Sequence record: PZ445456.1
Direction: 5' to 3' (one strand)
Length of the DNA stretch: 39,315 nucleotides
Source of the DNA: a phage
Shown here: piece after piece, positions 2,318-9,647 of the stretch
Numbering within the stretch: position 1 is the first letter of the stretch
Layout of the letters: every line of letters begins with the position of its first letter
Made by a program: the position numbers and the translations under genes
The notes under the pieces: generated by a model
What the model was told of the DNA's origin: nothing
The model's database searches: none
Seen by the model: only the letters and a program-made list of their open reading frames with translations

Positions 2318-2476
2318 GGCACCCTAAGACAACTTAAAGACACTTAAAGACTGCATATGCAAAGTGCATACTTAGTGACTAACTCTTAGAGAGACCCTTA
2401 CAGTGAGGGATGATGGTAATAGTAATTACATCCCTACTATCAGTGTAACCATCAAGTATAACAAGGAGGACGCTCT

Positions 2477-2632: not shown

Positions 2633-2639
2633 ACTGATC

Positions 2640-3215
2640 ATCGGCGCTTAGTGCGCTCTTAGTGATTATGGTCGATATACATCTTCCCTATAATCACTGT
2701 AAGAAGTCAACTCTAAGAGTAACCCTTATGTACCACTCTATGGTCTACAGGGTCTCTTAGGGTCTCTCACGTAGTCTCACCTTATGATAGAGCCTCTGTG
2801 GTTAACCTTATGAGACTTGATGTACCCCTTTAAGAATCCTACAGAAAAATCTGAGAGGGTATCTCATAGTTCATACAAAGTGTTTCCCCCCCTATGGCCT
2901 CCTTCAGTTACCCCAAAGAGTCGGCCCCTATGGTAACTTTATGTTTACTTAATGTCAATCCTTATGTGTGACATTGGGTGAATCACTTGGTGTTACCACT
3001 AGATGTAGTGCTTAGTGTGACCTTATGACCACTATATGTAGTCCTCTCTGTGTCCCTATCTGTAAGTGACCATTGAGTTACTCCTTATGTCATCACCTTA
3101 TGTCATCTCCTTATGTCATCACCTAGAGTCTCTCCTTATGGCTGGCTATCCTTATGTTAACCTTCAGTCGGTGCCTTCAGTCGATAGACCTTATGTTGTC
3201 ACTTAAAGACCATAC
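2640..3215. repeat. Genome-terminus region with arrays of short direct repeats (11 CCTTATG copies plus CCTATGG and CCTTCAGTCG variants)
   Basis: CCTTATG at 2724, 2780, 2806, 2960, 3021, 3083, 3096, 3109, 3134, 3150, 3189; triple tandem CCTTATGTCATC(A/T) at 3083-3122; CCTTCAGTCG twice at 3161-3183. Non-coding; positionally equivalent to the T7 terminal repeat with flanking short-repeat arrays. True ends and repeat length cannot be read from sequence alone. Confidence 0.6.
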
Positions 3216-3218
3216 AGC

Positions 3219-3241
3219 TAATACAACTCACTATTGAGGAT
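3219..3241 (+). promoter_or_regulatory. Phage RNAP promoter, left-end (phiOL-equivalent)
   Basis: TAATACAACTCACTATTGAGGA; shares the ACAACTC variant I recall for T7 phiOL; lies upstream of the sigma70 promoter cluster. Confidence 0.6.
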
Positions 3242-3317
3242 TGGTCTTATTAATATTCCCTTCCTTATAGGGCTAACTTAAAGACCACTTAAAGACAACT
3301 ATTTGTCACTTTAAGTA

Positions 3318-3346: not shown

Positions 3347-3452
3347 AGCAACCGTTGAGAGACACAACGCTACCAACTACCAGACAAGACCTAGAGTTAT
3401 CTGGTAAGGCTGAAGGGTCTCAAGTAGTCATCAACCAGACATACGAAAGTGG

Positions 3453-3481
3453 TTGACTCAACGATAGAAACAACGTAGTAT
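3453..3481 (+). promoter_or_regulatory. Host sigma70 early promoter (A2-like)
   Basis: TTGACT (3453-3458), 17-nt spacer, TAGTAT (3476-3481). Confidence 0.45.
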
Positions 3482-3545
3482 AGCAGTCGTCAACAACTGG
3501 TCGCCCTCTGAAACAACATGAGGTGTCACGGTGGCAAACAATAGG

Positions 3546-3575
3546 TTGACAGGCAGCAACAACAAGATGTAAGAT
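3546..3575 (+). promoter_or_regulatory. Host sigma70 early promoter (A3-like)
   Basis: TTGACA (3546-3551), 18-nt spacer, TAAGAT (3570-3575). Confidence 0.5.
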
Positions 3576-3644
3576 GTACGACATAACGTTCTTGTGAAGT
3601 CCCACACTGAAAGGGACTCGGTGCTAACAAAACTGCACTTAAAG

Positions 3645-9309: not shown

Positions 9310-9581
9310 TGGGTCGCTTATATAGTGGTAACTTAATAGCATACAAAGACGCTATCGAACGCCTCAAAGAAGACCACGATGTGAGTGTGGTCGTTGAGAC
9401 TTTCCGCTATGAGAACTATGCGAGGATGCGCTGGGTATCCGGTGAGACTCTTCGAGTGGTCTTACGGAATGGCTTAGTGTTAACCTCTAAGTGTTTCGAA
9501 CAGGACGATGAAGACGTTCGCTGCAATGCACAGACTGAATGGCTTCGTAAGGTACACAGTGACCTGAAGCACTGGAAGTAA
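9309..9581 (+). CDS. 1.2: Gene 1.2 protein (host dGTPase inhibitor family), 90 aa
   Basis: MGRLYSGNLIAYKDA...DEDV..N..TEWL...DLKHWK matches T7 gp1.2 (MGRLYSGNLAAFKAA...QLKDWK). Confidence 0.85.
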   Translation: MGRLYSGNLIAYKDAIERLKEDHDVSVVVETFRYENYARMRWVSGETLRVVLRNGLVLTSKCFEQDDEDVRCNAQTEWLRKVHSDLKHWK

Positions 9582-9601
9582 TACGACTCACTATTGCGAG
9601 A
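9579..9601 (+). promoter_or_regulatory. Phage RNAP promoter (phi1.3-equivalent)
   Basis: TAATACGACTCACTATTGCGAGA; overlaps the gene 1.2 stop codon. Confidence 0.7.
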
Positions 9602-9603
9602 GG

Positions 9604-9647
9604 TAAACTAAAGGTCATCTTCACGGGTGGCCTTTGTGATTAACTTT
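9604..9647 (+). promoter_or_regulatory. RNase III-type processing hairpin (R1.3-like), copy 2 of 3
   Basis: TAAACTAAAGGTCATCTTCACGGGTGGCCTTTGTGATTAACTTT; near-identical to the 9088 and 16397 copies. Confidence 0.55.

Follow-up and report, generated by a model that had tools for sequence, protein, structure and literature searches.

Short CCTTATG repeats around the predicted genome ends of a Berlinvirus phage and their probable counterparts in the T7 group

The non-coding gap between gene 19.5 and the left-end phage promoter of phage genome PZ445456.1 (positions 2640 to 3215) is crowded with copies of the heptamer CCTTATG, and a sequence-only reading had taken it for a terminus region in which a lineage-specific repeat may serve concatemer processing or packaging. 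The locus raises the question of where the genome ends lie relative to these repeats, whether the repeats correspond to the arrays of a different heptamer in T7, and what they might do at this place. The window, by which we mean the whole stretch of 39,315 bp that was analysed, is a Berlinvirus genome and belongs to the T7 group. Over 24 kb (5000-29000) it is ~93% identical to CarlSpitteler, PhiV-1, and JSS1, and the repeat region is 85-92% identical to the Berlinvirus phages S523, P694, BA14, FE44, and Kvp1.

We know of no function assigned to the short repeats beside the terminal repetition of T7, which Dunn and Studier are said to have called SRL and SRR in 1983, and the GenBank records of T7 carry no repeat annotation. 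A full-text literature search returned no description of these repeats beyond one study of Yersinia T7-like phages, in which nearly identical genomes have 11 to 34 copies in the intervals that separate the terminal repeat from the first and last phage promoters; these repeats of the fPS phages were treated as markers of microevolution, and no function was proposed for them (PMC5923468). Neither the CCTTATG core nor a CCT-NNN-G frame, nor a conserved pitch or register, was found mentioned in the searchable literature, from which much of the older work is absent.

Genome ends and the parts of the junction

Base 1 of the window is the ATG of gene 19, which encodes the large terminase subunit (ORF list and Pfam), and the window is therefore a rotated unit genome. 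Its physical ends were placed by aligning to it the joined ends of BA14, Kvp1, and FE44. All three are linear records with annotated terminal repeats (194, 194, and 193 bp, respectively), the two record ends were checked and are identical in each, and the genome ends of Kvp1 have been confirmed via primer walking (PMC2579914). The left genome end aligns to position 2862 (TCTCATAG...) and the repeat finishes with position 3057 (...GTGTCCCT), which gives, by homology to the repeats of 193-194 bp in the three relatives, a terminal repeat of 196 bp (2862-3057, + strand). The 20-mers at both repeat boundaries occur once each in the window. Since the 196-bp repeat is present as a single copy, the virion DNA should be about 39,511 bp long.

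Both ends fall inside the interval from 2640 to 3215, and CCTTATG repeats were found in every close relative examined, so that the description of this interval as a terminus region stands. With the ends placed by homology at 2862 and 3057, the CCTTATG repeats would bracket both cut sites. The same homology identifies the interval as the concatemer-junction region, consisting of the right-end unique flank, a single terminal repeat, and the left-end unique flank (3058-3217). It is not one array but falls into a left flank at 2640-2861, the terminal repeat, and, at 3083-3195 on the right, a regular array.

To the left of the junction, the phage-RNA-polymerase promoter phiOR (CTAATACGACTCACTATTGGGAA, 2294-2316, + strand) fits the 16-member promoter family of this genome and is annotated at the homologous position in BA14; transcription from it proceeds rightward through gene 19.5 and on across the short repeats and the terminal repeat. 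Gene 19.5 (2477-2632, + strand, 51 aa) is the final gene ahead of the junction; it was taken from the ORF list and aligns with the annotated gp19.5 of BA14, Kvp1, and FE44. The repeat region beyond it is non-coding, its limits being the stop of gene 19.5 (2632) and, on the right, the first phage promoter phiOL (CTAATACAACTCACTATTGAGGA, 3218-3240, + strand), which belongs to the promoter family of the genome and has its annotated equivalent at the corresponding place in BA14.

The left flank (2640-2861, + strand) is the right-end unique DNA of the mature genome. Besides its heptamers it contains other short repeats, namely two copies of CTTAGTG (2647 and 2658) and two of GGTCTCTTAG (2749-2767), and it ends in a block conserved across genera (CCCCTTTAAGAATCCTACAGAAAAATCTGAGAGGGTA, 2825-2861, + strand) that adjoins the left-end cut and is a candidate cleavage or recognition signal. 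Nearly the same sequence of ~37 bp precedes TCTCA(C/T)AG in T7, T3, Klebsiella-type, and fPS-59-type phages. At the other boundary the terminal repeat is directly followed by the concatemer-junction motif ATCTGTA (3058-3064, + strand), which reads ATCTGTT in T7 and T3 and which we take to be a class II pause signal for the phage RNA polymerase. The BA14 record marks a "concatemeric junction" at the homologous bases 193-200, and ATCTGT follows the repeat in T7, T3, phiYeO3-12, K1F, gh-1, fPS-59, and SP6 as well. The conserved end sequences of the T7 group, TCTCATAG and GTGTCCCT followed by ATCTGTA, are both present in the window, and judging from conservation the boundary blocks (~37 bp left of the left cut, and GTGTCCCT joined to ATCTGT) are the better candidates for the cleavage and pause signals.

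The terminal repeat also contains a predicted sigma-70-like promoter directed leftward (2930-2958, - strand; TTGACA, 17 nt, TACCAT), with 10/12 matches in a consensus scan. It is the counterpart of A0, a promoter that the T3, T7, and phiYeO3-12 records annotate at this same position.

Copies, pitch, and turnover of the heptamer

CCTTATG occurs 16 times in the 39,315 bases of the window, compared with a mean of 3.17 and a maximum of 9 in the 100 dinucleotide-preserving shuffles from which the expectation was taken. Eleven of the copies lie in the repeat region, where 0.03 would be expected from the rate outside it (Poisson P about 5e-25), all of them on the + strand and none on the - strand. 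They are split around the terminal repeat, with three starts to its left (2724, 2780, and 2806), two inside it (2960 and 3021), and six to its right (3083, 3096, 3109, 3134, 3150, and 3189). Variants accompany them in all three parts: CCTACAG in the left flank (2838), CCTATGG (2891 and 2927) and CCTTCAG (2901) within the terminal repeat, and two further copies of CCTTCAG on the right (3161 and 3174), both within CCTTCAGTCG. Counted as CCT-NNN-G, the sites from the stop of gene 19.5 to phiOL (2633-3217) number 18 on the + strand against one on the - strand, and this cluster is the only one of its kind in the genome. The eleven copies, CCTATGG and the other variants, and a 13-bp triple tandem, all of which the sequence-only reading had listed for the gap, were confirmed. 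A restriction-site or Chi-like reading of the heptamer was dropped because both arrays run in one orientation.

The right-hand array (3071-3195, + strand) opens with a degenerate first unit, CATTGAG (3071), after which come nine CCT-NNN-G sites at 3083, 3096, 3109, 3122 (CCTAGAG), 3134, 3150, 3161 (CCTTCAG), 3174 (CCTTCAG), and 3189. Their spacings are 13, 13, 13, 12, 16, 11, 13, and 15 bp, a pitch of about 13 bp, and their offsets from the repeat end run +25, +38, +51, +64, and so on. Only one of 20,000 random placements of nine sites within this flank had as low a standard deviation of the spacings (P = 5e-05), and none had all eight gaps between 11 and 16 bp. A coding role was rejected here, since the 46-aa ORF at 3066-3206 is without a Pfam match and relatives carry indels of 13 and 26 bp; with a 13-bp pitch, a reading frame cannot be maintained.

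Part of the array is a young 13-bp tandem, CCTTATGTCATC(A/T), present in 3.2 copies (3083-3124, + strand), for which Tandem Repeats Finder gave a period of 13, 93% matches, and the consensus CCTTATGTCATCA, and whose copy number varies among relatives. It is the only stretch that qualifies as a tandem of the slippage type. The older, dispersed copies share the core alone, and outside the young tandem the 4-9 bases between cores vary from unit to unit.

Where the window has its 13-bp triple, most Berlinvirus relatives carry a 26-bp unit that combines two halves of 13 bp (CCTTATGTTTCCT+CTTTGAGTCATCA). Its copy number is one in BA14, two in PhiV-1 and BP12A, about 2.5 in JSS1, four in FE44, and five in CarlSpitteler. 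The 13-bp unit of the window is this 26-mer less exactly 13 bp, and the differences in array length within Berlinvirus are all multiples of 13 bp. The distal part of the array (CCTTATGGCTGGCTATCCTTATGTTAACCTTCAGTCGGTGCC) is conserved among relatives. In two further phages, L013 and the P483-like L015, the interior of the terminal repeat has been replaced by nine units of 11-12 bp, and the flanking CCTTATG arrays and the boundary blocks are retained despite this swap. Their gp19 is 98% identical to that of the window, so the repeat interior, including its two CCTTATG positions, can vary freely while the terminase stays the same. Unrelated units have also expanded nearby, with 13 bp x12 in L020, 21 bp x12 in fPS-59, and 11-12 bp x9 in L013 and L015, which indicates that the region is intrinsically slippage-prone.

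These observations bear directly on the main rival to a functional reading, namely that the arrays are a neutral by-product, a dispensable spacer in which slippage and unequal recombination create and homogenise units and in which the heptamers have no function. The young tandem of the window, the copy numbers that differ among 93%-identical relatives, and the unrelated units expanded at nearby places all agree with such an origin, as does the comparison of the heptamer with neighbouring columns within the genus, where conservation was 0.91 vs 0.83 and the difference was not significant (permutation P = 0.14). Slippage, however, homogenises entire units, yet the 7-bp core alone is shared here and the spacers differ. 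The strand bias of 18 to 1 extends over three separate segments, and every indel is a multiple of 13 bp. We regard a neutral origin as unlikely, and two further points against it come from the comparison across lineages.

The heptamer in other T7-group lineages

In a comparison of 80 loci around gp19 homologues, the dominant heptamer goes with lineage: it is CCTTATG in Berlinvirus, CCTAAAG in T7-like and T3-like phages, CCTGAGG or CCTTAGG in Klebsiella-type phages, and CCTAATG in fPS-59-type phages, while CCTATGG, CCTAAGG, CCTTAAG, and CCTAACG are dominant at single loci. Among more distant phages, K1F has CCTACAG/CCATAAG, gh-1 has CCATAGG, and SP6, from another subfamily, has CCTTAGT at a 12-bp pitch. 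Across Berlinvirus, T7, T3, and the Klebsiella-type and fPS-59-type relatives, the common form of the heptamer is CCT-NNN-G with a lineage-specific centre. Because the cores of the Klebsiella-type and fPS-59-type phages, K1F, and gh-1 also differ, we treat the core sequence as specific to a lineage and not as the defining property of the arrays.

The proposal that T7 carries analogous arrays holds for T3 as well, both phages having CCTAAAG on the same strand at the same places. The equivalent gap contains 13 copies of CCTAAAG in T7 and 9 in T3, with none on the other strand and no CCTTATG in either phage, and CCTAAAG is absent from the junction of the window. The strand bias of CCT-NNN-G is 24 vs 6 in T7 and 21 vs 4 in T3. 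As in the window, the T7 repeats occupy three places, namely the gap from gene 19.5 to the terminal repeat, the terminal repeat itself, and the stretch from there to phiOL; they have a 7-bp core in one orientation, a right-hand pitch of ~13 bp in register from the repeat end (offsets +14, +27, +40, +52, +65, and +78), and the boundary blocks TCTCA(C/T)AG and GTGTCCCT followed by ATCTGT. The differences concern the core (CCTTATG here vs CCTAAAG in T7), the size of the right array (9-10 slots vs 13), and the length of the terminal repeat (196 bp vs 160 bp).

T3 and phiYeO3-12 (Teetrevirus) share the architecture and polarity, their first slots falling at +12/14, +24/27, and +37/40, but their core is CCTAAAG/CTTAAAG, their terminal repeat is 231-232 bp long, and their regular array is shorter (3-4 slots) and continues with CCTGTAG units. 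The fPS phages resemble this phage in having short repeats of variable copy number at these two places, and the CCTAATG array of fPS-59 has the CCT-NNN-G form; unlike this phage, fPS-59 has 12 copies of an unrelated 21-bp unit directly after the repeat.

Among non-redundant junctions extending into the right flank, from T7-, T3-, Klebsiella-type, and Berlinvirus phages, a tally of neighbour spacings gave 13 bp (n = 54), 12 bp (n = 26), and 25-26 bp (n = 28). Counted from the repeat end, the sites in these four lineages fall at about +12/14, +25, +38, +51, and +64, and across lineages the right array begins 12-26 bp past the repeat end; spacing and register are less regular in K1F, gh-1, and SP6. 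That the same pitch and register occur in T7-, T3-, Berlinvirus-, and Klebsiella-type lineages with different cores argues against neutral slippage. We also noticed that the window (56 bp), T7, T3, and the Klebsiella-type and fPS-59-type phages all have a copy at 55-59 bp to the left of the genome end. The centre of this left copy is that of the phage's own right array in the window (CCTTATG), T3 (CCTAAAG), and the Klebsiella-type (CCTGAGG) and fPS-59-type (CCTAATG) phages, T7 being the exception with the variant CCTATGG near its genome end. An isolated copy ~56 bp left of the genome end that matches the centre of an array 200 bp away is again hard to reconcile with a neutral by-product.

Since placement, single orientation, pitch, and register are shared with the T7 group, the CCTTATG arrays are very probably the Berlinvirus counterpart of the T7-group short-repeat arrays, that is, a lineage-specific member of that family. 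The feature is otherwise an ordinary part of a T7-group genome.

Orientation and register also bear on the idea that the arrays act on the mature linear DNA, either in the handling of its left end, which is ejected first, and its right end, which is packaged first, by portal, core, or ejection proteins or in the protection of these ends in the cell. In the virion DNA the arrays are indeed close to the ends, at up to about 140 bp on the right and 340 bp on the left. Both of them, however, have the same orientation, as fits a contiguous concatemer unit, whereas end functions would more likely be mirror-image, and their register is held to the internal repeat boundary, which is ~200 bp from the physical left end. 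A role of this kind appears to us very improbable.

A role at the level of transcription was considered as well, in which the repeats would influence how the polymerase pauses at or reads through the junction, or would function as RNA within the phiOR transcript. This would agree with phiOR transcripts traversing the whole region, with ATCTGT(A/T) standing exactly at the repeat end, and with the link drawn between junction pausing and maturation (PMC3276506). As single-stranded RNA, however, the right array shows no folding beyond that of its shuffles (z = +0.25), and the arrays have no Rfam match at E <= 1, for which reasons a structured RNA element was rejected. The T7 and T3 polymerases differ but their phages share CCTAAAG, and the promoters of the present phage are T7-like while its heptamer is not. 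We hold a transcription-level role to be highly unlikely. A direct tie between the heptamer and the phage promoter sequence was likewise dropped, the specificities of heptamer and promoter not tracking each other.

The RNA fold of the left flank does beat its shuffles (z = -2.2), with the signal confined to a hairpin separate from the heptamer array. This conserved inverted repeat has a 12-bp stem (2660-2699, + strand; arms 2660-2671 and 2688-2699) and is found 163-202 bp to the left of the left genome end. A consensus structure computed from six Berlinvirus sequences contains 17 pairs, of which one is kept by a two-sided change (UA to AU, in 3/6) and two by one-sided changes.

Possible role at the junction

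A role in packaging or concatemer processing is our preferred reading, suggested by the position, the polarity, the pitch, and the concerted lineage-specific change of the arrays, and we see about an even chance that they are accessory cis elements of one or the other. In such a role the heptamers would be weak, repeated, and polar putative binding sites for a multimeric phage-encoded protein at the concatemer junction. They would increase local affinity and place the complex at a constant register relative to the cut and pause sites. Cutting itself would be signalled by the cross-genus conserved blocks at the two repeat boundaries, and the arrays would be accessory to them, being neither cleavage sites nor, probably, the sole determinant of specificity. 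Units would come and go by slippage in 13-bp steps, with selection retaining the heptamer core.

This working model likens the arrays to the P1 pac hexamers, the R sites of lambda cosB, and pacL/pacR of SPP1, which are sets of short, similarly oriented elements flanking a terminase cut and read by a multimeric small subunit. Binding and requirement are proven in those systems and putative here, and the T7 group has particulars of its own in its pitch of 13 bp, its unit number, and a pair of cut sites separated by about 200 bp. Several observations count against an accessory role, among them the non-significant conservation difference within the genus and the expansion of unrelated units noted above. 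Copy number is very tolerant, ranging from 1 to 5 units of 26 bp; the copies within the terminal repeat are dispensable, having been replaced in L013 and L015; and a T7 deletion that removes gene 19.5 along with some of the neighbouring right-end DNA is reportedly viable.

The most plausible reader would be the terminase, in the form of gp19 and an oligomer of gp18, perhaps joined by phage RNA polymerase that has paused at ATCTGT(A/T), but we are much less confident of any particular reader protein than of the accessory cis role. According to published work, gp18 recognises a PacB site in the concatemer (PMC9860248), the gp18 proteins of T3 and T7 are interchangeable, the packaging specificity of the two phages is ascribed to gp19 and the terminal sequences, and maturation is tied to a pause of the polymerase at the junction (PMC3276506). 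Given that T3 and T7 share the heptamer but differ in packaging specificity, the heptamer cannot be the determinant of that specificity.

The suggestion that the repeat co-evolves with the terminase found no clear support. The type of heptamer does follow the terminase lineage in the 80 loci, where gene and site are adjacent, and because they adjoin this concordance could be mere linkage. When gp18 was aligned by heptamer group, on the other hand, it proved highly conserved, with no residue pattern tracking the heptamer centre, and the gp18 of T3-like phages differs from that of T7, yet both use CCTAAAG. Under a gp19 98% identical to that of the window, L013 and L015 have exchanged the interior of the terminal repeat with its two heptamer positions. 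As to structure, no solved homologue of gp18 was found, its AlphaFold model is weak (pLDDT 69, pTM 0.44), and a Foldseek search against the PDB with this model returned nothing below E = 3.

Alternatively, the arrays could be a replication element that helps the secondary origins phiOL and phiOR, or helps to duplicate the terminal repeat, for instance by giving the helicase-primase sites near the ends at which to load or prime. phiOR and phiOL are secondary origins in T7, and the arrays sit between them. Many units end in GTC (CCTTATGTC three times, CCTAGAGTC once, and CCTTCAGTC twice), the core of T7-type primase recognition, and a separate family, CTTAAAGAC(C), with TGGTC on the other strand, is found beside both promoters. 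Nevertheless, GTC follows some units only, and ATGTC, CAGTC, and GAGTC are not the preferred pentamers of the T7 primase. The conserved part is CCT-NNN-G, not GTC, and a lineage-specific centre would have no obvious meaning for a primase. A replication element is in our view quite unlikely.

To the accessory cis role one may add a more specific and rather doubtful proposal, in which the arrays are an "address" for the junction machinery, made up of the CCT-NNN-G frame, the 13-bp pitch, and the fixed register to the cut and pause site at the repeat end, with the three bases of the centre reset in concert in each lineage together with its reader protein.

The window adds a second, clean core (CCTTATG) in the T7 frame. 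The rules that emerge can be broken experimentally: CCT-NNN-G sites in one orientation, a pitch of ~13 bp, a fixed register, changes of length in multiples of 13 bp, and matching centres in the two flanks, the last of which holds for the window, T3, and the Klebsiella-type and fPS-59-type phages. The arrays are variable in copy number and easily collapsed or mis-assembled, and they flag the true genome ends in rotated T7-like assemblies, which is relevant to the rebuilding and engineering of phages. If the address reading were true, the heptamer centre would be a packaging-compatibility code between co-infecting T7-group phages, and the short repeats of T7 would gain a testable function.

Repeat units in and beside the terminal repeat of relatives

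In two loci around homologues of the large terminase, L013 (IMG/VR 2974600058, 40,058 bp) and L015 (P483-like), whose large terminases are 98% identical to that of the window, nine units of 11-12 bp with the form NNNNG(A/G)TAAC make up the interior of the terminal repeat, at bases ~9431-9608 and ~3417-3594, respectively. Four or five of the nine units are exact copies of TGTGGATAA, a sequence complementary to the DnaA box TTATCCACA, and as judged from this match the interior is an array of candidate host DnaA boxes. The window holds a single near-copy, TGTGGTTAA, which is the nearest counterpart, at 2794-2802.

Two other tandem units occur near the junction. The 13-bp unit ACTCTTAGTGACT, unrelated to the 13-bp unit of the CCTTATG array, is present in twelve tandem copies between phiOR and gene 19.5 in L020 (IMG/VR 2700988866, ~9380-9535), versus about one and a half copies in the window (2374-2395). 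In Yersinia phage fPS-59, the 21-bp unit AACCACTGAGTATCATT(G/A)AGG is repeated twelve times (196-430) directly 3′ of the terminal repeat, and a CCTAATG array comes after it.

Several ORFs run across the repeats of the junction region. The hypothetical gene g001 of fPS-59 (149-445) spans the 21-bp repeat and is probably not a real gene, and the ORFs annotated over the repeat flank and terminal repeat in the BA14 (39380-39697) and FE44 (39425-39757) records look spurious. The window ORF lying over the array (3066-3206, 46 aa) has no family match, and its region carries 13- and 26-bp indels among relatives.

Promoter and hairpin around the left genome end

Within the terminal repeat, a sigma-70-like promoter (TTGACA, 17 nt, TACCAT) lies on the minus strand at 2930-2958 and points leftward; it corresponds to promoter A0, which is annotated in T7, T3, and phiYeO3-12. 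A conserved hairpin with a 12-bp stem is located at 2660-2699, at a distance of 163-202 bp to the left of the genome's left end. Among six Berlinvirus sequences, changes to both bases preserve one of its pairs (UA to AU, in three of the six), and single changes preserve two further pairs. T7, T3, and Klebsiella-type phages carry AGGGAT...ATCCCT at the equivalent position. A hairpin intermediate has been proposed in T7 concatemer processing, to which the Berlinvirus hairpin may be linked.

Right edge of the array and repeats at phiOR and phiOL

Comparison of window 3196-3260 with L015, three further loci (L018, L097, and L099), and Kvp1 revealed two alternative sequences directly right of the CCTTATG array among Berlinvirus genomes, with the changeover after GTGCCTT, at the array's right edge. 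One version bears phiOL (window, BA14, FE44, and P694); no clear phiOL was found in the other (Kvp1, S523, PhiV-1, JSS1, and P483-like).

A repeat family separate from CCTTATG, (A/C)ACTTAAAGAC, is located just downstream of phiOR (2331-2351) and around phiOL (3200-3210 and 3275-3296). Three copies run on as CTTAAAGACCA, the complement of which includes TGGTC, a preferred site of T7-type primases. In T7, phiOL and phiOR are secondary replication origins, and the TGGTC motif would fit the same role for the two promoters here.
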